NCBI RefSeq assembly: GCF_003399445.1
Contig: NZ_QUQO01000002.1
Location: 316,290-380,289 of the forward strand
Direction: 5' to 3'
Length of the DNA stretch: 64,000 nt
Origin: Parvularcula marina
Lineage (GTDB): Bacteria; Pseudomonadota; Alphaproteobacteria; Caulobacterales; Parvularculaceae
Shown piece by piece: positions 26,832-49,642 of the stretch. Position 1 is the stretch's first letter. Each line of letters begins with the position of its first letter. Under the pieces are notes generated by a model. The model was not told the DNA's origin and made no database searches. It saw only the letters and a program-made list of their open reading frames with translations. The position numbers and the translations under genes were made by a program.

Positions 26832-27311
26832 ATGAAGAAACTCAAGAGATCCGTAGGCGTTGCACTCGGCCTTCTGGCAGGTGGGGCGGCCATGGCCGGA
26901 ACCAGCGCCTCCGCACAGGAATGCTACCTTGGCGAGATCGGCATGTTTGCAGGGAATTTCACGCCCCGGAACTGGCTGCCGGCGGATGGCCGCATGATGG
27001 ATATTTCCCAGAACACCGCGCTCTTCTCGCTTCTGGGTACGATTTATGGCGGCGATGGCCGCACGACATTCGCGCTGCCGGATCTGCGCGGGCGCAGCCC
27101 CGTCGGTTATGGGCAGGGGCCGGGCCTGTCAGATCGCCGGGTGGGCAGCAAGGCAGGGGCCGAAGTGGTCACGCCGCCAAGCGCTTCAATTGAGACAGCT
27201 CCCGGCAATGATCCGGTCGTTGTCGGCGGCGCGCCGATCATGACGGCGCCCCCAACGCTTGCAATCGGCTATCAGATATGTGTGGCCGGATATTATCCGA
27301 GCCGCAATTAG
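26832..27311 (+). CDS. Secreted phage tail-collar domain protein (MdpB-like)
   Basis: Signal peptide followed by [23 protein letters not shown]...[13 protein letters not shown]...[13 protein letters not shown], the tail-collar fibre motif. Confidence 0.7.
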
Positions 27312-28076: not shown

Positions 28077-28604
28077 ATGAAAAAGTTTGTTCCTGCCGGC
28101 CTCGCCGCCACCGCGCTGCTGATTGGTGCCGCAACGACCGCCAGCCCGATGAAAGGCGCGTTCAACCACGCATTCGGTGTGGCCGCGACTTCTGTGACGG
28201 CGACCGACATTGAAACTGACGCCAAGGCGCTCTTCGCCAAGGTCGATATTGACCGCTCGGGCACGCTAGACGCCGATGAGTTCGCCGGCCACGCGCTGGT
28301 CCTGGCAGAGCTTGCCCGCTTCAACCGCACGGTGACCATCGAAGGCGAGAGCGAGATGCAGATCCGCCTGCCGGACGGCACACCGGAGGAAGTCAGCCAC
28401 ACAGAGCGCGGCTCGATCGATGCCGTTGCCCGCCGGGCTTTCCATCAGTTCGCCGATAATGGCGAGATGAGTGAAGAGGGCTTCACCGCCTATCGTCTCT
28501 CGATGATGGACAAGGCCGATACCAATCGTGACGGCACGCTGAAAAGTCACGAGCTTGAACGCTTTGCCTCCGCCATGGCGCGCCCGGCCCAGCCGCGGGG
28601 GTAA
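28077..28604 (+). CDS. Secreted EF-hand calcium-binding protein
   Basis: Signal peptide and two EF-hand loops (DIDRSGTLDADE and DTNRDGTLKSHE). Confidence 0.7.
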   Translation: MKKFVPAGLAATALLIGAATTASPMKGAFNHAFGVAATSVTATDIETDAKALFAKVDIDRSGTLDADEFAGHALVLAELARFNRTVTIEGESEMQIRLPDGTPEEVSHTERGSIDAVARRAFHQFADNGEMSEEGFTAYRLSMMDKADTNRDGTLKSHELERFASAMARPAQPRG

Positions 28605-28640
28605 TTCGTCCGTTCCCTTCAAGGGGATGTGATTGAGCAA

Positions 28641-28672
28641 GGCGTATCGTTGCCCCACGATGCGCCTTTTTC
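28641..28672 (+). terminator. Rho-independent terminator after the EF-hand gene
   Basis: GGCGTATCG-loop-CGATGCGCC hairpin followed by TTTTT. Confidence 0.5.
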
Positions 28673-28749: not shown

Positions 28750-30609
28750 ATGTTTACTGGCACTTACGAGGAATTCTTCGAAGCGCTGCGGCAACGTGAG
28801 TCGAGCGGCGATTACAGCGTTATCAGTACAGGCGGTTATCTGGGCGCCTATCAGTTCGGAGAGGCAGCTCTTGTTGATCTGGGCTTTGTCTACAATGACG
28901 GCTCGCCTTTCGATAATGACTTCAACGGAACATTCACCGGGAAATATGATGTCTTCAGTGTCGAGGATTTCCTCGACAGCCCATCCGCACAGGACCTGGC
29001 GGCCGAGGAATGGTTCTCACTCCTCTGGGCACGGATCCGTTTCAACGACCTCGAATTTTATGATCAGCAAACGCTCAATGGCGTGACCCTGACCAAGTCA
29101 GGCATGATCGCGGGCGCTCATCTTCTTGGTGTTGGGGGATTGCGGGATTTTATCCTGTCGGGCGGAACCGATGCAGGAGCCGACGGGAACGGTACCAGCA
29201 TTACAGAATACCTGACCCTGCTTGGTAATTATGAGACGCCGTCATCCTTCCTCAATAATCTTGATAAGGATAATGAGATAGCGGGCGGTACCGGCGAGGA
29301 TAACCTCAACGGGTTTGCGGGTAATGATGAGCTGAGCGGTGACGCCGGTGATGACATTCTCGATGGCGGGAGCGGTGACGACATACTTCTCCCCGGTGAT
29401 GGCGATGATCTGGTCCGTGGCGGCGACGGCAATGACGAAATCATGCTCTTCACCATCGGTGCGGATACGATCGAAGGCGGTGACGGTGCAGACAGTGTCA
29501 CCACGGATGAATTCTTCCTGCCACAGATCTTTATCTCAAACGAAGCCGACCCATCCGAAGAGGTCATTCTGACCTATACGACGCAAGGTGGAAAGATTGA
29601 GGCAACTTTCCGTTCGATTGAAAAATTCCTGTTTCGGCATGAGCCCGGTTTTGCAACCGTGCCGACAAGCGCCTTGCTCCTTGGTGGTGACGAGGCAGAT
29701 ATCTGGGATGCGCGCGAATTCGCCGAGCGGAGAATTCTTCTCTATGGCGGCGATGGGGATGATGAAGTCACTGTCAGCCCAAATCAGCTGGGGACGTTCA
29801 ATGGCGGGGGCGGCCATGATTTCCTTCACATTATTTCCAGCCAGCTTTTTGGCGGGTTACGCGACAACACCAATGATCCTGCGTCCGTCCTCTTTGAGAC
29901 GTCACTTGGCGGCTTTCTTCAGATTAATGAATTCGAGCGGATACTGATCGATTATACCGGTGCGGCGGCGATGCAATCTCCCGACTATCTTTTGCTGCGC
30001 GGCACATCTGGTGATGATGTGATTGATGGATCGTCCGAAATTCTCGGCTTTTCAATGGTGCTCGGTGATGGCGATGATGTGGGGACTGGTGCTGACGGGG
30101 ATGAAAGTTTCGATGGGGGATTTGGCAACGACACCATTCTGGCCGGCGGCGGCGATGATGTCATCTATGAGCGTGTTGGCGATGTGAATGTCCTCAATGG
30201 CGGGGAAGGACAGGATCACCTCGTTCTGGAAGGACAGTATACGGATCTCGGTTTAGATATCACGATAAGCGATGGGTTGGTCATCTGGAGCGATGAATTG
30301 CCGCCCATCGCCTTCGAAAACATCGAGACCCTGTCGATCAGCGCAAGTGGTGATACAGGCAGTCATGATGTCCTTAGTGCCATCGGCAGCAGCTTGCGAA
30401 TTCTCGCAGAGCTTGGCGAGGGCGACGACACTCTCTTGGGCGGGCAAGGAGAAGACCGCTTTTTTGGCGATGATGGGGATGACGTCCTTCACGGCAATGA
30501 AGGGGATGATCTGCTCGTTGGCGATGACGGCAATGACGTGATCATTGGCGGCGAGGGGAATGACTATATTATCGGCAGTGACGGGAATGATTATCTCGTC
30601 GGTGATTAG
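28750..30609 (+). CDS. RTX-repeat (hemolysin-type calcium-binding) protein with an N-terminal Rpf-like transglycosylase domain
   Basis: The N-terminus, RESSGDYSVISTGGYLGAYQFG, resembles the ESGGNW..NTGNGYYGGLQF core of Rpf/transglycosylase-like domains. From about aa 190 onwards there are tandem GGxGxDxL/I nonapeptide repeats running to the last residue. No signal peptide is evident. Confidence 0.7.
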   Translation: MFTGTYEEFFEALRQRESSGDYSVISTGGYLGAYQFGEAALVDLGFVYNDGSPFDNDFNGTFTGKYDVFSVEDFLDSPSAQDLAAEEWFSLLWARIRFNDLEFYDQQTLNGVTLTKSGMIAGAHLLGVGGLRDFILSGGTDAGADGNGTSITEYLTLLGNYETPSSFLNNLDKDNEIAGGTGEDNLNGFAGNDELSGDAGDDILDGGSGDDILLPGDGDDLVRGGDGNDEIMLFTIGADTIEGGDGADSVTTDEFFLPQIFISNEADPSEEVILTYTTQGGKIEATFRSIEKFLFRHEPGFATVPTSALLLGGDEADIWDAREFAERRILLYGGDGDDEVTVSPNQLGTFNGGGGHDFLHIISSQLFGGLRDNTNDPASVLFETSLGGFLQINEFERILIDYTGAAAMQSPDYLLLRGTSGDDVIDGSSEILGFSMVLGDGDDVGTGADGDESFDGGFGNDTILAGGGDDVIYERVGDVNVLNGGEGQDHLVLEGQYTDLGLDITISDGLVIWSDELPPIAFENIETLSISASGDTGSHDVLSAIGSSLRILAELGEGDDTLLGGQGEDRFFGDDGDDVLHGNEGDDLLVGDDGNDVIIGGEGNDYIIGSDGNDYLVGD

Positions 30610-30885
30610 GCTCGATTGCGTGCCGATGCATGTCAAAGGTCAGTACAAATAGCATCACGAGATTGTTGCGGATCGGCAACAGCACGAAGTAAAGCCAGAT
30701 TTTCTTTGTCCGAATTCTGGACAACGGCAGAAAGAGTATCCATCTGCTCTCGCGTTCACTTGTCGTATGGTTGGGGCTCCTGAGACCCCGCCGGTGCAGC
30801 CCGTCTCGGACCCTGCGTTCCACGGCAATGAATGCCAAGACCATAGCCAAATCGGAAAAGGCACTCGTCCTGAGGGCGAGAGATT

Positions 30886-30910
30886 GGGGGTTCGAGTCCT
30901 CCTGGTTTTA
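30886..30910 (+). other. Orphan tRNA 3'-end-like fragment (T-arm plus acceptor 3' strand)
   Basis: GGGGG-TTCGAGT-CCTCC then TGGTTTT-A. No matching D-arm, anticodon arm or complementary 5' strand was found upstream. Confidence 0.35.
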
Positions 30911-30981
30911 CATGGATAGCTCAAGGGTAGAGCACTAGACTCATAATCTAGGTGTTGCGGGTTCGATCCCCGCTCCAAAAT
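30910..30981 (+). tRNA. tRNA-like element with CAT anticodon (Met/Ile2-type) and a disrupted acceptor stem; possible tRNA pseudogene or att remnant
   Basis: Canonical D-arm (TAGCTCAAGGGTAGAGCA), a perfect anticodon stem CTAGA/TCTAG with loop CTCATAA, and a T-arm GCGGG-TTCGATC-CCCGC. The 5' strand ACATGGA pairs with only 4 of 7 positions of the 3' strand TCCAAAA. The expected TTTTGGA is split as TTTT-acat-GGA. Confidence 0.5.
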
Positions 30982-35679: not shown

Positions 35680-35765
35680 GGAGGGGTGGGAGAGTGGTTA
35701 AATCCAGCAGACTGTAAATCTGCCCGCTTCGGCGTACGCTGGTTCGAATCCAGCCCCCTCCACCA
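35680..35765 (+). tRNA. tRNA-Tyr (GTA)
   Basis: Acceptor GGAGGGG/CCCCTCC, anticodon loop ACTGTAAAT, a long variable arm and a T-arm GGTTCGAATCC. The CCA end is encoded. Confidence 0.9.
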
Positions 35766-35770
35766 GCCTT

Positions 35771-35897
35771 CGCCCTCATCGGGCTACGGCTTGGCAGGCC
35801 AGCCAGGAAATGAGTTCCGGCTCGAAGCGTATTATCCATTAGTGTGGGCGAAGGCTGCCACGTCGAAGTCGCTCTGCGACGAAGACGGGCTGGATGA
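35771..35897 (+). repeat. Direct repeat copy 1 (conserved blocks of ~35 bp and ~52 bp), immediately 3' of tRNA-Tyr
   Basis: CGCCCTCATCGGGCTACGGCTTGGCAGGCCAGCC ... GGGCGAAGGCTGCCACGTCGAAGTCGCTCTGCGACGAAGACGGGCTGGATGA. It is a near-identical copy of 36178-36297, except for a variable ~45-bp middle section. Confidence 0.8.
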
Positions 35898-35917
35898 GAA
35901 GCGCTAGCTTCTTGCTC

Positions 35918-36157
35918 ATGAAATATGTCTACATCTTGGAAAGCCTGTCTGACCCTGATCGCCATTATGTCGGTCTGACCGACGACCTTCGTGACAGGCT
36001 TGAAAAGCATAACAATGGCGTTGTGTCTTCGACCGCTCGGCACAGGCCTTGGCGTATACAAACTTATCTTGCTTTTTCGGATACACAGCGAGCTATCGAG
36101 TTTGAGAAATATCTCAAGAGCGGTTCCGGGCGAGCATTCGCGAAGAAACGACTTTAG
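35918..36157 (+). CDS. GIY-YIG nuclease family protein (small, ~80 aa)
   Basis: KYVYILES...HYVGLTDDLRDRLEKHN GIY-YIG motif. The MKYVYI start is preferred over the track start. Confidence 0.75.
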   Translation: MKYVYILESLSDPDRHYVGLTDDLRDRLEKHNNGVVSSTARHRPWRIQTYLAFSDTQRAIEFEKYLKSGSGRAFAKKRL

Positions 36158-36177
36158 ATTTTTCAATCGCCCTCATC

Positions 36178-36297
36178 GGGCTTCGGCTTGGCAGACCAGC
36201 CCAAAACCGATTTTCAAGCTTTAAGACGAATGTGCCATTGGCGCGGGCGAAGGCTGCCACGTCGAAGTCGCCCCAGCGACGAAGACGGGCTGGATGA
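36178..36297 (+). repeat. Direct repeat copy 2, immediately 3' of the GIY-YIG gene
   Basis: CGCCCTCATCGGGCTTCGGCTTGGCAGACCAGCC ... GGGCGAAGGCTGCCACGTCGAAGTCGCCCCAGCGACGAAGACGGGCTGGATGA. Confidence 0.8.
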
Positions 36298-40264: not shown

Positions 40265-43200
40265 TCAGGCGATATCGACTTCGATGTAAGTCGTATTCTC
40301 CGTCGCCGGATTTTCATCGAAACCTTCAAGATCGAAGGGCGGCGAGTCATTCGGGATCGGGAAGATCGTTGCGAAGGGCTCATTGTCGATGAAGGTGAAG
40401 GTTTCGTCGAAGGCGAAATCATCATCCGTGGTCGAGGTGGAGTTCGGGAACAGGCTGAAGCTCGGTCCATTGAAGAAGTCCGAGGTGATCCCGGCAGTGA
40501 ACCGCAACAGCCCGATGAACAATTCGAGGCTGAACCCAAGCTGGGTGAGGTTCGAGAACACCGCGTCCATATCAACGTCGATCGTGAAGTCGATGAGACC
40601 GTCCGCATCCCCCATTGTGTCAACGTCAAAGCCTGTCGGGGCCGTGACGGTGATGTCATCACCGACATTATAGCCGGTGATCGTGCTGCCATCCTCAAGC
40701 GTGAGGAGAAGCGGCAGATCTTCGATCGTCAGCTCGAAGTCCTGGATCGCGGCCAGTGTCGCGATCAGGTCGATGGCAATCAGGTCAAAGCCATATTCAA
40801 CCGAGATGAGGTTGAGGTTGACACCGGCCACAGACGTGGTCAGCCCGAAGCTGCCAGACTCGCCGAAGGTGACTGGCGCACCGCCCAGTGCTGCGGAAAT
40901 GCCTTCCGCGATGATGGCGTCAATATCGATCGACAGGCTGGCAATATCGTCCGTCTTCTGATCCGGATCGAGGTTCCGCAGCGTATCCGGATCAACTGGG
41001 ACACCAGTCGTGTTGATGACCGGCGCGTTGAAGGACAGCGTTCCGAAACCGGCGAGATCGAATTCGAGTTCGTTCTCGCTGGGGTCGGGGAAGTTGAAGA
41101 TATTGAAGCCGGGCTCGCCTTGATTGCCCTTGAAGCCATCAATGTCGCCTGTATCGAAATCGAAGATATCGATCTTGGTGCTGCCGACATAGAGGTCGAG
41201 CGAGGTATCGAGATCGAAGACGAAGTCGAGGCCGAAGCTGACCTGCGGGCTCATGGTAGAGAAGGTCGCGCCGCCATCAAGCGTATAGGCCGATCCGATG
41301 GTGAAAGTGTCACCTGCTTCGACCTGACGCGGCACGGTGAAGACCACCTCGACCGGCAGATTGGCATCGACGCTGCCGGAGTTGAGATAGAAATAAGGCT
41401 GAAGGCCCGCTTTCACATCAAGCCCGCCAACGGTCCGGACGCTCGGTACAGAGATCGATGTCGGAACATCGTCGTCCTCACAATCCCCTCCGAAGAAATC
41501 GACCACGGCACAGCCAAGATCTTCGAGCGCATCAACAACAGAGCCGATCCCTTCGAGGATCGATTGCAGGACGCCGCCGGCAAATGTCTGACCGCCCAGA
41601 ATGGTCGTGCTGAGTGAGGTGTACTCATCAATGCCGAGGAAGGGCAGGTCGGGATCGAGGATGATCGCATCCCCTGTGCCGAACTGGCTCTGCCCTTCGG
41701 TGACGAAGACGAGATCGTCGGTGAAGTCTATATCGGCATCGTCAGCACCAACCACCGTGACCGTAATGGTCTTGGCTTCGCTGGTATCAGTCGGCGTGCC
41801 GCTATCGTCGATGGCGACATACTGGAAGGTCATGTCGCGGGTCTCACCGGCTTCGAGGAACTGGAACTGGTTGTTCCCGGACGGATCGGTGATCAGGTTA
41901 AAGGTGAATGTGCCGTCGCCATTATTGACGACCTCACCATATTGATGCCCGAACTCATCCATCGGCAGGCCGAGGATCTGATAGCTGAGGATATCGGTGG
42001 CATCGACGTCGCTGGCATTGAACATGCCGGTGACATTGAGCGCATCCTCGCTGACGGAGACCATGACATCTTGTGCGATCGGTTCGTCATTCGTCCCGAA
42101 GATGGTGATCGAGACATCGGTCGTGGCGGCGCCGCCATTCCCATCATCAATGGTGACCGTATAAACCTCGGTGATGGTCTCACCATCGGCGAGGAACTGC
42201 ACCAGATCGTCATCGAGGGCATAATCCCAACGGACCCAGCCGCCGTCACCCAGACCCGTCGTATCCATGACGAGCGACGAGACTAGCCCGCCTAGTTGGC
42301 CGCCAGGATTGGTCGTCGATTTGAAGACGGCCGAGGTCGTGTGCGTATCGGAAAGGTCAACATCACCGAAACCGATATTGCCGGTATCTGTGAGTGTGAC
42401 CCCGCCATCTTCTTCGATGACAGAGCCATCATCCGTGCTCTCAATGGTCACGAGATCATTGACGCCATTGATGACAATCTTGAGCGTCTTCTCGACGCTC
42501 GAGACAAGACCATCCGTAGACGTATAGACAAAGGTGATCATGTCCATCTCGCCGACGGCGAGGAAGTCGAACGCATCCTTCTGATCGAAGCTCCAGGTGC
42601 CGTCCGGATTAACGGTCAGCATCGCGTCTTCATTGGGAAGGACCGAAGCGCCATCATAAAGATAGACGCCCGGATTCTCGACCGTCAGGGTCTCGCCAAA
42701 GACGGAGATATCATTGTCGAAGAGATCCCCAGTGACGATGATATTCTCGTCAGTGGTCGCATCATCGTCTTCAGGACGGATCTTGAAGCTGTTGGGTACC
42801 TCAAAGTCCGGCTCGGGAGCCACAAAGCTGCCCGGATCCATGGTCGGCCGCACAAACTGGAGGAAGACTTTCTCAAGATCATCAACCGTGAGGTCTTCAT
42901 ATTTGTCGACGCCGAAGGTGATGAGCTCCTCATCAGTCTGCCAGAAGCCCTGGAAGCTGAAGGGCGAGCCGGTATTCGGGTTGAGGGTCTGTACCTCACC
43001 CAGCTCAAAGACTGTGTTCTGACTGACATCGCGGATCCAGACAAAACTGCCATTGGCGAACTGGATGGCTAGGTCATTATCCGTGAAGGTCAACCCGCCT
43101 TCTTCGTAGAGCTCCACTGGTGTGTAATCCAGGACATCAACGGAGAAGTAGTTGATATAATCATCCAGCACCGCAAACAGCTTGTTGGTGATATTGCCGG

Positions 43201-45193
43201 TCAGCGCATCACTGCCATCCGTGTACGTGACGTTGAAGCAGATCTGGTCGGACTGGTTGCCGTCAAAATCCATGATGAAGGTCTGGAAGAGACCATTCGC
43301 GTCGATGGAATCGACTGTGACATTCCCCATGCCGTCCGTGGACGTGGTCACGACGATGTCGATGATGAAATCATCGGCCCCTTCTTCGCCATAGAGGTAG
43401 TTCTGCCCCTGACGTCCGGCGAGCGTATCGTCATGCTCACCGCCGAAGAGCAGGTCGAAGCCCGTGGTGACGGTATTCCCGCCAAGGATGAAGTCGTCAT
43501 CCTCTTCGCCATCGAGGGTGTAATCCCCGGTGCCAGAGCCAATCAGCGTGTCATTGCCTGTACCGCCAAGCACGGTGTCGCCGCCGATGGCGATGTCATC
43601 TTCCGTCCCGAACACGCCATCCATGCCGACGTCATAGACATAGTCCGTGCCCGCATTGCCAGCGTCGATGATGTCATCTCCCGCGCCGCCATCAACGACG
43701 TCGTCACCATTGCCGGCCTGGATCACATCATCACCGTCACCGCCCGAGATCGTGTCGTTCCCGGCGTCGCCGTCGATCGTGTCATGGCCGAGGCCACCTG
43801 CAATATTGTCCGCGCCGGCCTCACCATCGAGGCAGTCATCATCTGCGCCGCCATCGATCGTGTCATCGCCCGCGCCGCCAAGAATGGTGTCATCACCTTC
43901 ATTACCAGCGAGGAGGTCGACTGCATTACCCCCATCAATGGCGTCGGCCCCGAGGCCGCCCGCGACCGTGTCCGCGCCTTCTCCGCCGAACAGCGTGTCA
44001 TTGCCATCACCGCCGGTGATGTCGTCATTGTCATCGCCGCCATCGATATAGTCGTCGCCATTGACGCCTTCGAGAACGTCCGCGCCGCCTTCGCCGAAGA
44101 TGACGTCATTGCCGTCATCACCGAAGAAGCCGCTTTCGACATCAAAGGCATCCGAGCCGGAGATCGAGTCATCGCCAGCGCCGCCGAGCATGGTGTCATT
44201 GCCCTGACCGCCGCGAATGTCGTCATCGCCGCCTTCGCCCTCGATGAAATCATCATCATCATTACCCGACAGGCTGTCATTGCCCGCGCCACCGAAGATC
44301 TTGTCGTCACCGGCGCTGCCATCGACATCGTCATCGCCTTCATTGCCGAAAAGGACATCCTCGTCCTTGCCGCCGTCGATGTCGTCATCGTCAAGACCGC
44401 CAAGGATCGTGTCCTGACCATCGCCACCTTGAAGATTGTCTTCACCGGCCTGACCGAAGATCAGGTCATCGCCTTCATTCCCGGTGATGTCGTCGCCCTG
44501 ACCGATCTCATCGCCGCCGACGAGGGTGTCGTCGTCCTTTTGTCCCTTAATCGTATCAACGCCTGCACCGCCAAAGACGAGGTCATTGGCATTGCCGCCA
44601 TAGATCGTGTCCGAGCCATCCTGACCGAGGAGCGTGTCATCTGCATTGTTGCCCGAAAGAATATCTGCGCCGGACCCGCCAAACAGCAGGTCGATCCCGC
44701 CGCCGCCTTTCAGCGTGTCGTCACCATCCGCGCCATCGATCGTGTCGCGGTTAAAGCCGCCGTCGATATTGTCGTCACCGCCCGCACCCAGCAACAGGTC
44801 ATGGTGATCGCCGCCGAAGATGACGTCATCGCCGCTGTCGCCGCAGATCGTGTCATTGCCGCCCTGACCATCGATCGTGTCGTCATTGCCCTGACCACGG
44901 ATGATGTCATTGCCGCCGCCGCCATAGATGAGGTCGGCGCCTTCCACGCTTGATTCATCGAGAGGGCCGTCATCACCGGAGAGAATATCATCGCCTCCCT
45001 GGCCCTTGATCGTATCGGCGCCGCCGCCCCCGAAAATGGTGTCCTTGCCTTTGCCGCCTTGGCCGAAATCCTGTCCTTCAAGAAGGTAGATCAGATCGTG
45101 CCCGCCGCGACCGTCCACATTATCGTCACCGCTGAGGTCTTCCCCAAGACCCGGAAATGTTTCGGACGTGTCGTCGCCAATAATATTCGCCAT
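40265..45193 (-). CDS. Giant (1642 aa) calcium-binding repeat protein with an N-terminal RTX nonapeptide block and a C-terminal Ig/cadherin-like repeat region
   Basis: A GGGAGAGG Shine-Dalgarno sequence precedes the ATG at 45193. The first ~600 aa are tandem GGxGxDx(I/L) repeats. The remainder is D/T/G-rich with VCBS/cadherin-like segments. No N-terminal signal peptide is obvious. Confidence 0.8.
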   Translation of the reverse strand: MANIIGDDTSETFPGLGEDLSGDDNVDGRGGHDLIYLLEGQDFGQGGKGKDTIFGGGGADTIKGQGGDDILSGDDGPLDESSVEGADLIYGGGGNDIIRGQGNDDTIDGQGGNDTICGDSGDDVIFGGDHHDLLLGAGGDDNIDGGFNRDTIDGADGDDTLKGGGGIDLLFGGSGADILSGNNADDTLLGQDGSDTIYGGNANDLVFGGAGVDTIKGQKDDDTLVGGDEIGQGDDITGNEGDDLIFGQAGEDNLQGGDGQDTILGGLDDDDIDGGKDEDVLFGNEGDDDVDGSAGDDKIFGGAGNDSLSGNDDDDFIEGEGGDDDIRGGQGNDTMLGGAGDDSISGSDAFDVESGFFGDDGNDVIFGEGGADVLEGVNGDDYIDGGDDNDDITGGDGNDTLFGGEGADTVAGGLGADAIDGGNAVDLLAGNEGDDTILGGAGDDTIDGGADDDCLDGEAGADNIAGGLGHDTIDGDAGNDTISGGDGDDVIQAGNGDDVVDGGAGDDIIDAGNAGTDYVYDVGMDGVFGTEDDIAIGGDTVLGGTGNDTLIGSGTGDYTLDGEEDDDFILGGNTVTTGFDLLFGGEHDDTLAGRQGQNYLYGEEGADDFIIDIVVTTSTDGMGNVTVDSIDANGLFQTFIMDFDGNQSDQICFNVTYTDGSDALTGNITNKLFAVLDDYINYFSVDVLDYTPVELYEEGGLTFTDNDLAIQFANGSFVWIRDVSQNTVFELGEVQTLNPNTGSPFSFQGFWQTDEELITFGVDKYEDLTVDDLEKVFLQFVRPTMDPGSFVAPEPDFEVPNSFKIRPEDDDATTDENIIVTGDLFDNDISVFGETLTVENPGVYLYDGASVLPNEDAMLTVNPDGTWSFDQKDAFDFLAVGEMDMITFVYTSTDGLVSSVEKTLKIVINGVNDLVTIESTDDGSVIEEDGGVTLTDTGNIGFGDVDLSDTHTTSAVFKSTTNPGGQLGGLVSSLVMDTTGLGDGGWVRWDYALDDDLVQFLADGETITEVYTVTIDDGNGGAATTDVSITIFGTNDEPIAQDVMVSVSEDALNVTGMFNASDVDATDILSYQILGLPMDEFGHQYGEVVNNGDGTFTFNLITDPSGNNQFQFLEAGETRDMTFQYVAIDDSGTPTDTSEAKTITVTVVGADDADIDFTDDLVFVTEGQSQFGTGDAIILDPDLPFLGIDEYTSLSTTILGGQTFAGGVLQSILEGIGSVVDALEDLGCAVVDFFGGDCEDDDVPTSISVPSVRTVGGLDVKAGLQPYFYLNSGSVDANLPVEVVFTVPRQVEAGDTFTIGSAYTLDGGATFSTMSPQVSFGLDFVFDLDTSLDLYVGSTKIDIFDFDTGDIDGFKGNQGEPGFNIFNFPDPSENELEFDLAGFGTLSFNAPVINTTGVPVDPDTLRNLDPDQKTDDIASLSIDIDAIIAEGISAALGGAPVTFGESGSFGLTTSVAGVNLNLISVEYGFDLIAIDLIATLAAIQDFELTIEDLPLLLTLEDGSTITGYNVGDDITVTAPTGFDVDTMGDADGLIDFTIDVDMDAVFSNLTQLGFSLELFIGLLRFTAGITSDFFNGPSFSLFPNSTSTTDDDFAFDETFTFIDNEPFATIFPIPNDSPPFDLEGFDENPATENTTYIEVDIA

Positions 45194-47669: not shown

Positions 47670-47845
47670 GATGGCGCTCCCGCTTTGCGCCGGCGGCTCG
47701 CCAGCCGACCCGGATAGGGAATTAGGGCCCTCCGGGAAACCCCTTTCATACAGTTTGCGCTCTCATTTCGGGGGTGCGTCTGCGGCCTTCTCAGAGAGGG
47801 CCGGGCGCGCTAGGCTTTACCGAGAAACAACAAAAAGGGAACACC

Positions 47846-49642
47846 ATGACACGCACCCTTGCGGCGACACTCCTTCTCTCGACTGCGCTCTGCCTGCCAG
47901 CAGCGGCAGCCGCCAAGCCTTCCGCGCGGGAGGCAAAGGCCTTCATCGCCGAGGTTGAAGAAAATTATGAGCAGCTCTGGGAAGAGGCGGCGCGCATCGC
48001 CTGGCTCAAGGCGACCTATATCAATTTCGATTCCAACTGGCTTGAAGCGAAAATCAATGCCGAGCTGACCGAGATCGCGGTCGAATATGCAAACCGGGCG
48101 AAAGATTTCGATGATACCCGAGTTTCCGATGATGTGCGGCGTAAGCTGAATATCCTGAAGCAGAGCATTACGCTGCCGGCACCGACACGTGATGGCGCGG
48201 CCTCTGAACTCGCTGCTATCACCTCGCGCCTCGACAGTGCCTACTCAACCGGCAAGATCGATTTTGAGGATGAAGTCGTTCCCCAGAACCAGACTGAAAT
48301 CCTGATGCGCCAGCTTCGTGACCCAGCCAAGCTCGAAGAGGTCTGGACGAAATGGCGCGGCAACTCGGTTCAGATGAAACAGGACTATGTCGACATGGTC
48401 GAAATCGCCAATGCCGGAGCGAAAGAGCTTGGCTATGACGATCTGGGCCAGATGTGGCGGTCCAATTACGACATGGATCCCGACGCCTTCGCCGAAGAAA
48501 CCGACCGGCTGTGGGGACAGGTTGAGCCGCTCTACACAAATCTTCAGTGTCATGTGAAATACAGGCTGAACGAGGAATATGGCGACGAGGTCGTTCCTCT
48601 CGACCAGCCGATCCGCGCGGATCTTCTCGGCAATATGTGGGCACAGAGCTGGGGATCTATCTATGATCTCGTCGCACCGCCAACGGGGGACAGCGAGAGC
48701 ATCAATCTCGACGAGATCCTCGTGGCCGCGGATTACACCCCGCTGAAAATCACGCAGACAGCCGAGTCCTTCTTCACTTCGCTTGGTTTCGATCCGCTGC
48801 CGGATACGTTCTATGAGCGTTCGCAGATCACCAAGCCGGAAGGCCGGGAAGTTGTCTGTCACGCCTCGGCCTGGAACCTCGACAATGTCGATGATATCCG
48901 GATCAAGATGTGTACGGAGGTCAATGCAGATGACTTCCGCACCATGCACCACGAGCTGGGGCACAATTTCTACCAGCGTGCCTATAACAAGCAGCCTATG
49001 CTGTTCCGGGGAGACCCCAATGATGGTTTCCATGAAGCGATTGGTGACATGATCACGCTGTCGATTACGCCGGAATATCTCCAGCAGATCGGTCTCGTCG
49101 ACGAGGTTCCGTCCGCGGATGGCGATCTTGCGCTCCTAATGAATGAAGCGCTCGAGGGGGTGGCATTCCTGCCCTTTGGTCTTCTCGTTGATAAATGGCG
49201 CTGGCAGGTCTTCTCCGGCGAGCTGACGCCTGAGACCTATAATGATGGCTGGTGGGCCCTGCGCGAGCAGTACCAAGGCATCCGTCCGCCTAATGAGCGT
49301 CCGGCTGACGCGTTCGATCCGGGTGCGAAATACCATATCCCGGGCAACACGCCCTATATGCGCTACTTCCTTGCCCGCGTCCTGCAGTACCAGTTCTACA
49401 AGGCCGCTTGTGACCAGATCGGCTGGGAAGGGCCGCTTCACCGCTGCTCCTTCTATGGTGCTGAAGAGGTTGGCGAGAAATTCAACGCCATGCTCGAAAA
49501 AGGAAATTCGCAGCCATGGCAGGACAGCCTGGAACTCTTCACCGGCACGCGGGAAATGGATGCGTCCGCGCTCGTCGAGTATTACCGTCCGCTGATGGAA
49601 TGGCTGGAAGCGGAGAATGAAGGCCGTCAGTGCGGCTGGTAA
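47846..49642 (+). CDS. Peptidase M2 (angiotensin-converting-enzyme-like peptidyl-dipeptidase), secreted
   Basis: Signal peptide (LLLSTALCLPAAAAA), an HHELGHNFYQ zinc-binding HEXXH motif and a downstream EAIGD Glu ligand region. ~600 aa, typical of bacterial ACE homologues. Confidence 0.8.
   Translation: MTRTLAATLLLSTALCLPAAAAAKPSAREAKAFIAEVEENYEQLWEEAARIAWLKATYINFDSNWLEAKINAELTEIAVEYANRAKDFDDTRVSDDVRRKLNILKQSITLPAPTRDGAASELAAITSRLDSAYSTGKIDFEDEVVPQNQTEILMRQLRDPAKLEEVWTKWRGNSVQMKQDYVDMVEIANAGAKELGYDDLGQMWRSNYDMDPDAFAEETDRLWGQVEPLYTNLQCHVKYRLNEEYGDEVVPLDQPIRADLLGNMWAQSWGSIYDLVAPPTGDSESINLDEILVAADYTPLKITQTAESFFTSLGFDPLPDTFYERSQITKPEGREVVCHASAWNLDNVDDIRIKMCTEVNADDFRTMHHELGHNFYQRAYNKQPMLFRGDPNDGFHEAIGDMITLSITPEYLQQIGLVDEVPSADGDLALLMNEALEGVAFLPFGLLVDKWRWQVFSGELTPETYNDGWWALREQYQGIRPPNERPADAFDPGAKYHIPGNTPYMRYFLARVLQYQFYKAACDQIGWEGPLHRCSFYGAEEVGEKFNAMLEKGNSQPWQDSLELFTGTREMDASALVEYYRPLMEWLEAENEGRQCGW

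Follow-up and report, generated by a model that had tools for sequence, protein, structure and literature searches.

We describe a gene on the forward strand of a 64-kb stretch of the Parvularcula marina genome (the window, meaning the whole stretch of DNA that was analysed), which encodes a protein with a lysozyme-like domain at its N-terminus followed by repeats-in-toxin (RTX) repeats that continue to its very end. The open reading frame (ORF) was confirmed in the ORF listing at exactly the position given in Table 1. It begins with ATG, the first start possible, with an in-frame TGA five codons upstream, and it lies in mid-contig (450 kb). At the protein level it shows 100% identity to WP_116393390.1, which NCBI lists as "calcium-binding protein [Parvularcula marina]"; the product has an isoelectric point (pI) of about 4, contains no Cys, and consists of 16% Gly and 13% Asp.

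Table 1. The RTX-lysozyme gene, its parts and other features of the window (residue numbers refer to the RTX-lysozyme protein)
Feature	Position	Strand	Remarks
Whole ORF	28750..30609	+	619 amino acids; TAG stop at 30607-30609
N-terminal lysozyme-like (GH23 / lytic-transglycosylase-like) catalytic domain, predicted	28750..29265	+	residues 1-172
Predicted catalytic-core motif R-E17-S18 ... G32-A-Y-Q-F-G-E38	28795..28863	+	residues 16-38; from conservation and helix position
RTX block I	29275..29502	+	residues 176-251; ~8 nonapeptide turns, modelled beta-roll with pLDDT above 90
Lineage-specific middle region	29503..30438	+	residues 252-563; degenerate RTX blocks 333-360 and 418-492
Terminal RTX block	30439..30606	+	residues 564-619; six canonical nonapeptides in a row
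Non-coding spacer 3' of the stop	30610..30836	.	family-type tail remnant in no frame
Terminator-like hairpin	28639..28668	+	12-bp stem and T-run; ends the upstream EF-hand gene
Two tandem degenerate tRNA-like cloverleaves	30837-30910, 30913-30977	+	2 nt apart; Rfam tRNA 51.9 and 53.8 bits
Small protein with phage-tail-collar domain	26832-27311	+	E 1.3e-26
Small protein with EF-hand calcium-binding motifs	28077-28604	+	directly 5' of the RTX-lysozyme gene
tRNA-Tyr	35680-35765
Second RTX protein	40265..45193	-	1642 amino acids; bacterial cadherin-like domain
Bacterial angiotensin-converting enzyme homologue	47774-49642	+	Peptidase_M2, E 2.7e-204

A lysozyme-like domain and its family

A reading made from the sequence alone (the sequence-only reading) had recognised the core of an Rpf-type transglycosylase near the N-terminus. 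The motif on which it relied, R16-E-S-S-G-D-Y-S-V-I-S-T-G-G-Y-L-G-A-Y-Q-F-G37, is present at residues 16-37, and the domain does belong to the lysozyme superfamily with a conserved Glu of the catalytic type; the narrower assignment did not stand, and "Rpf-like" is right at the superfamily level only. The Pfam model for the Rpf type (PF06737, Transglycosylas) touches residues 10-40 only, with an E-value of 0.045, and an NCBIfam scan returned RTX-type families only. The domain matches PHROG 27932, "baseplate hub subunit and tail lysozyme" (E 4.6e-21), with residues 5-155 aligned to positions 342-484 of 855; this alignment spans the lysozyme segment of the profile only, and its OB-fold and beta-helix hub modules are not matched. 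Sequence searches of the PDB, whether with the domain alone or with a 24-sequence profile, found nothing, and matches there were obtained by fold comparison alone. The AlphaFold2 model of the catalytic domain has a predicted local distance difference test (pLDDT) score of 92.5, and in the fold comparison it scored 10.1 with C. jejuni Cj0843c, 9.7 with both MltE and MltC, 9.1 with P. aeruginosa Slt, 8.8 with Slt70, 8.1 with phiKZ gp144 and 5.6 with RpfB (over 73 residues). The best matches among predicted viral structures (BFVD) showed 25-30% identity and TM values of 0.67-0.76, and they include the baseplate hub/tail lysozyme of Agrobacterium phage Atu_ph04 and a gp5/Vgr OB-fold protein.

Conservation singles out the same core. 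R16, E17, S18, Y22, the stretch G32-A-Y-Q-F-G-E38, H124, L125 and G127 are invariant in 24/24 close relatives, and most of them are at least 90% conserved in 130 diverse representatives; those conserved across the family are E17, S18, G32, Y34, Q35, G37, E38, H124, L125 and G127. In the AlphaFold2 model E17 forms the C-terminal end of a helix (residues 6-18), the position of the catalytic Glu in GH23 enzymes, and a GLMQ-type motif follows, which is the arrangement expected of the GH23 fold. The E-S...G-x-x-Q spacing presumably agrees with the ES...GLMQ of Slt70. By its fold and conservation the domain is thus predicted to be a GH23-type lysozyme or lytic transglycosylase, with E17 as the presumed general acid.

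The family to which this domain belongs is large and has no Pfam or NCBIfam model that names it: an exhaustive profile search gave 5017 clusters (at 50% identity) at E<=1e-3 and 3304 at E<=1e-10. Weak matches to SLT (PF01464) were seen in 2 of 72 relatives, the best at 6.6e-5. The fusion of a lysozyme fold to RTX repeats had been thought unusual but is common here, with at least three RTX motifs in 78 of the 163 top representatives. The P. marina protein lacks a signal peptide, as the sequence-only reading had it; yet this too is the rule, as a signal-peptide-like N-terminus was found in none of the 78 RTX members, and throughout the family, RTX members included, the domain nearly always starts at residue 1. 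An N-terminal extension occurs in 24 of the 85 non-RTX members and is hydrophobic and signal-like in about 18 of those 24 (about 18/85 versus 0/78, Fisher p 4e-6).

The partner domains found in non-RTX members are LysM (3), Peptidase_M23 (3), PG_binding_1, PG_binding_3, DUF3262 and XVIPCD, the antibacterial-effector signal of the X-type IV secretion system (X-T4SS). Because non-RTX members carry LysM, M23, PG_binding and XVIPCD partners, the substrate of the domain is likely to be peptidoglycan and its site of action outside the cytoplasm. The sequences further point to RTX repeats being one of several interchangeable delivery modules, next to Sec signal peptides, phage baseplate hubs and the X-T4SS signal. 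On this count a lysozyme-like family of thousands of 50%-identity clusters would use at least four delivery routes in bacteria and phages, and its RTX-fused members are candidate cell-wall-degrading effectors secreted by a type I secretion system (T1SS).

In Rhodobacterales (loci L029-L075) the domain also occurs as stand-alone homologues of about 170-260 amino acids, within about 0.1-8 kb of a conserved gene pair. The pair, seen in 26-27 of these loci, encodes a 1110-amino-acid protein with a GT2 glycosyltransferase domain and an 850-amino-acid DUF3131 protein; an AT3-SGNH acyltransferase or a 1040-amino-acid sulfatase-domain protein is also present in some of them (10-11 loci each). Judged by its gene content, this cluster could be an envelope-glycan or exopolysaccharide locus with the domain as its hydrolase.

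The tail-less C-terminus and its stability

The repeat assignment was borne out by Pfam, where HemolysinCabind (PF00353) matches with E 1.1e-28 over 7 stretches. A pattern scan found 18 nonapeptides in four blocks (179-251, 333-360, 418-492 and 564-617). In the middle region three beta-rich inserts, ending in ...IEKFLF, ...FERILI and ...FENIETLSI, break up the RTX blocks; the structure model is of low confidence here (residues 252-563), and a close homologue was found only within P. marina. The same holds for the C-terminal 369 amino acids as a whole, for which homology searches otherwise gave generic RTX similarity only. The repeats run to the end of the protein, as had been noticed from the sequence: the final repeat, GSDGNDYLV, is followed only by G-D-TAG, so that the last nonapeptide ends 2 residues short of the stop. 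In the full-length model the terminal beta-roll has a pLDDT of 87-95, with a strand every nine residues up to 615-617.

RTX proteins are exported unfolded by T1SS via an uncleaved C-terminal signal of ~60 residues, and fold on calcium outside the cell (PMC3034196). Such a signal had been claimed to be missing here, and the comparison with other proteins shows how rare this is. Among 44 RTX-bearing representatives of the family the P. marina protein alone ends within 15 amino acids of its last repeat, and none of 118 unrelated generic RTX proteins truly ends in a repeat. All full-length RTX-bearing relatives that we inspected have a non-repeat tail, in most of about 60-170 amino acids, ending in acidic-hydrophobic motifs such as DFLF, DFVF or EDLL, and a profile built from RTX-bearing relatives (alignment A1) can be aligned with T1SS lipases and serralysins all the way to the C-terminus. 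The missing tail is the only truly exceptional feature of the P. marina copy. Three close relatives from Parvularcula and Caulobacterales metagenome-assembled genomes (L003, L008 and P0131) have very short tails of 11-20 amino acids, and tail length is therefore variable in this clade.

The odd ending is stable. A second, independent P. marina assembly (L001), about 5% diverged (about 96% identical over 20 kb), has the same 619-amino-acid ORF with the same TAG stop, and this variant (WP_370337801.1) was seen on 3 contigs. The two copies differ by 63.5 synonymous and 31.5 non-synonymous changes, with no indel or stop in 1860 nt. The ratio of non-synonymous to synonymous substitution rates (dN/dS) is 0.137 for the whole ORF (dS 0.16), with 0.087 in the catalytic domain, 0.21 in residues 173-440 and again 0.087 in residues 441-619; neighbouring genes have values of 0.06-0.09. 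Beyond the stop, 811 nt are gap-free and 96.8% identical between the two assemblies. No displaced tail was found in a three-frame translation of the downstream sequence or by tblastn of 110-amino-acid family tails against the whole window, which returned RTX repeats only. The P. marina gene is thus intact and under purifying selection, and both a truncation in assembly and a pseudogene of recent origin are excluded. Because the sequence past the TAG is unrelated to the repeats or to family tails, the end looks like an old rearrangement junction and not a recent nonsense mutation.

Neighbourhood and origin of the gene

A strong terminator closes the upstream EF-hand gene, and the RTX-lysozyme gene therefore appears to be its own transcription unit. 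Its GC content at third codon positions (GC3) is 0.573, whereas most of the other genes that were measured in the window have 0.68-0.78 (0.698 in the second RTX gene). We found no synteny with the nearest Parvularculaceae relatives and no att-like direct repeats flanking the gene. Downstream lie two tRNA-like cloverleaves. The first, with C33, a 7-bp anticodon stem and a 3-nt loop, is called by ARAGORN as a 75-nt tRNA-Ser(tga); the second, with a CAU anticodon and an acceptor stem of only 4 bp, is missed by ARAGORN. They are probably degenerate tRNA remnants and may be integration-site relics that bound the gene on its 3' side. Its GC3, the lack of synteny and the tRNA-like remnants downstream indicate that the gene was probably acquired horizontally. 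We also considered whether the tRNA-like genes might aid read-through of the amber stop, and rejected this; with UGA and CAU they lack a CUA anticodon, and the peptide read past the stop would be Arg/Cys/Ser-rich junk.

The two small genes upstream, encoding the tail-collar and the EF-hand protein, each have an N-terminus that looks signal-peptide-like by eye, and in other genera neither is conserved next to the RTX gene's relatives. Colinearity between the window and L001 is broken at about 35897-36178 (L001 17033-17152), just downstream of the tRNA-Tyr; about 120 nt of L001 align twice at this break, suggesting a small duplication or insertion difference. Elsewhere in the window, the angiotensin-converting enzyme homologue covers essentially the whole 581-position Peptidase_M2 profile.

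Export and function

On balance we consider it somewhat more likely than not that the gene encodes a functional, exported peptidoglycan glycosidase of the RTX/T1SS type, with export as the weakest link. According to this model, the acidic, Cys-free protein would be kept unfolded in the low-calcium cytoplasm and exported by a type I secretion system whose genes lie elsewhere in the genome, and calcium binding outside the cell would fold its beta-rolls. Using E17 as its general acid, the N-terminal domain would then cut the bonds between N-acetylmuramic acid and N-acetylglucosamine (MurNAc-GlcNAc) in other bacteria's walls or the debris of these. The P. marina copy has a lineage-specific RTX extension of about 370 amino acids and has lost the non-repeat tail of ~60-170 amino acids. 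We infer an extracytoplasmic action and a T1SS route because signal-like N-termini are confined to non-RTX members whereas the domain sits at residue 1 in RTX members, because the relatives align with T1SS lipases and serralysins to the end and have D-hydrophobic ends, and because of the low pI and the lack of Cys.

Several observations weigh against this model. The ~60-residue non-repeat signal is absent, with the end ...GSDGNDYLVGD inside a repeat, and the modelled terminal roll has neither a cap nor a non-repeat tail; in the RTX rolls that have been studied a cap or other mass is needed, as in block V of CyaA, which requires one at its C-terminus for folding (PMC5618222). On the catalytic side, the PF06737 match (14.9 bits) misses the gathering cut-off of 27 bits, SLT does not match at E<=10, and a Foldseek search of the PDB found the same families with a best E of 0.07 and no solved structure at E<=0.001. 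A conserved immunity-like neighbour was not found for RTX-bearing members, and the dN/dS values come from a single sequence pair. No ATP-binding cassette (ABC), membrane fusion protein (MFP) or TolC gene of a T1SS was found in the window by an ABC-motif scan together with a Pfam scan of 10 ORFs of at least 407 amino acids and 10 neighbouring genes (not all ORFs of at least 380 amino acids), and no T1SS component was found in L001. That no secretion genes adjoin the gene had been noted before and is correct. However, none was found next to any of 75 family loci, so that their absence is the rule and in the window is uninformative. The only large ABC gene near these loci, in L005 and L007, was considered as a T1SS gene and rejected, as it reads as UvrA from its N-terminal sequence. 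In favour of export, the second RTX protein of the window has a non-repeat C-terminus of more than 150 amino acids ending in ...TYIEVDIA, and this normal C-terminus suggests that the organism has a T1SS.

How could a protein without a tail leave the cell? One may speculate that the type I machinery of Parvularcula-type lineages reads the unfolded RTX block or only a few terminal residues, and that the terminal roll folds uncapped, which would make the protein a natural signal-less T1SS substrate with an antibacterial muramidase as its cargo; we regard this more specific proposal as rather unlikely. If true, the graded tails of close relatives (about 100 amino acids, 11-20, none) would represent a progressive loss of the canonical signal. 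The P. marina copy serves as a natural test of two textbook rules, the ~60-residue C-terminal export signal and the C-terminal cap for beta-roll folding. If the protein is not secreted, what remains is a truncated and unusual protein from a common family.

Alternatively, the gene may be an export-dead relic, its tail removed by deletion or rearrangement and its product cytoplasmic, unfolded, harmless and being lost, or else freed only on cell lysis. The rarity of tail-less ends among relatives and generic RTX proteins, the unrelated sequence after the stop (as expected of a rearrangement junction), the atypical GC3 with adjacent tRNA-like relics, and the view that the C-terminal signal is necessary (PMC3034196) all fit such a relic. 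A neutral relic should nevertheless approach a dN/dS of 1, far from the values found over the whole ORF and in the terminal RTX block, and the 11-20-residue tails in the clade suggest that minimal tails are tolerated; we therefore hold a relic to be doubtful. The odd ending is also all that speaks for an assembly or annotation artefact in which the real gene would run on into a normal secretion signal, the outcome that would have undone the original observation. It is hardly credible, given the same ORF length and TAG in L001, with the variant on 3 contigs, the position mid-contig, the gap-free downstream sequence and the lack of any tail-like coding remnant in the window; a shared collapse of both assemblies is unlikely, as the junction is unique sequence.

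Other alternatives concern the substrate. The domain could act as a glycanase on a GlcNAc-containing exopolysaccharide or a chitin-like polymer, as the T1SS-secreted rhizobial ExsH, PlyA/B and EglC do on theirs. Such secreted glycanases are established in alphaproteobacteria (PMC3034196, PMC2275737), and the stand-alone Rhodobacterales homologues adjoin GT2 synthase-like and DUF3131 genes, some with an acyltransferase or sulfatase. Yet other family members have peptidoglycan-specific partner domains, phage baseplate lysozymes are the nearest relatives outside cells, and neither the P. marina gene nor any RTX-bearing relative has genes for polysaccharide synthesis at its flanks, which makes a glycanase improbable. 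The sequence-only reading of an Rpf-type domain, extended to a resuscitation or growth-factor transglycosylase that would remodel the wall of its producer, could draw on PF06737 being the sole Pfam catalytic model to touch the protein, on its weak matches in 14/72 relatives, and on the Rpf structures that turn up in both fold searches. This match is sub-threshold, though, the domain is more than twice the length of an Rpf domain (~170 against ~75 amino acids), and the delivery modules found here (RTX, phage tails, XVIPCD) point to action on other cells. Rpf is, to our knowledge, an actinobacterial family exported by Sec. We consider an Rpf function very unlikely.

An exported peptidoglycan glycosidase would most resemble, in its overall plan, the T1SS substrates serralysin/AprA, LipA/TliA and ExsH, with which the P. 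marina protein shares an N-terminal hydrolase joined to a GGxGxDxUx beta-roll, the absence of a signal peptide, and an acidic, Cys-free composition. It differs from them in lacking the post-repeat signal and cap that they possess. Its predicted catalytic domain, a lysozyme-like glycosidase, is a further difference, and our literature searches found no characterised RTX-lysozyme and nothing specific on a Parvularcula T1SS; as for PlyA/B, these T1SS substrates are described as non-RTX. Export with no recognisable tail has a precedent in the alphaproteobacterial Sap protease of Caulobacter, which has an RTX protease's catalytic part and is exported by T1SS without an identifiable signal (PMC3034196). 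Its catalytic domain is another one, however, and it does not end in a bare RTX repeat.

For the catalytic domain the structural parallels are Slt70, MltE, MltC, Cj0843c and phiKZ gp144, which likewise have a Glu-Ser ending the first long helix and, ~14 residues later, G-x-[YM]-Q-[FI]. The family-1 (GH23) lytic transglycosylases differ in that they share only 13-20% identity with the domain, and the classical ones do housekeeping work as Sec-exported periplasmic enzymes or lipoproteins and are not fused to RTX repeats. Rpf belongs to the same superfamily and has the same E-S...G-G-x-Q-F type of core, giving the best, sub-threshold, Pfam catalytic match, but it is a compact domain of c-type-lysozyme-like fold, about half as long, with another taxonomic range and another export route. 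The closest detectable sequence relatives are the phage baseplate-hub and tail lysozymes of PHROG 27932. Their context is different, as phage structural genes were not found near the P. marina gene, whose neighbours encode Ndk, the EF-hand protein and an SPFH protein. In the phage version the domain lies inside a tail-spike protein of 650-890 amino acids, whereas in P. marina it forms the N-terminal head of a beta-roll protein.

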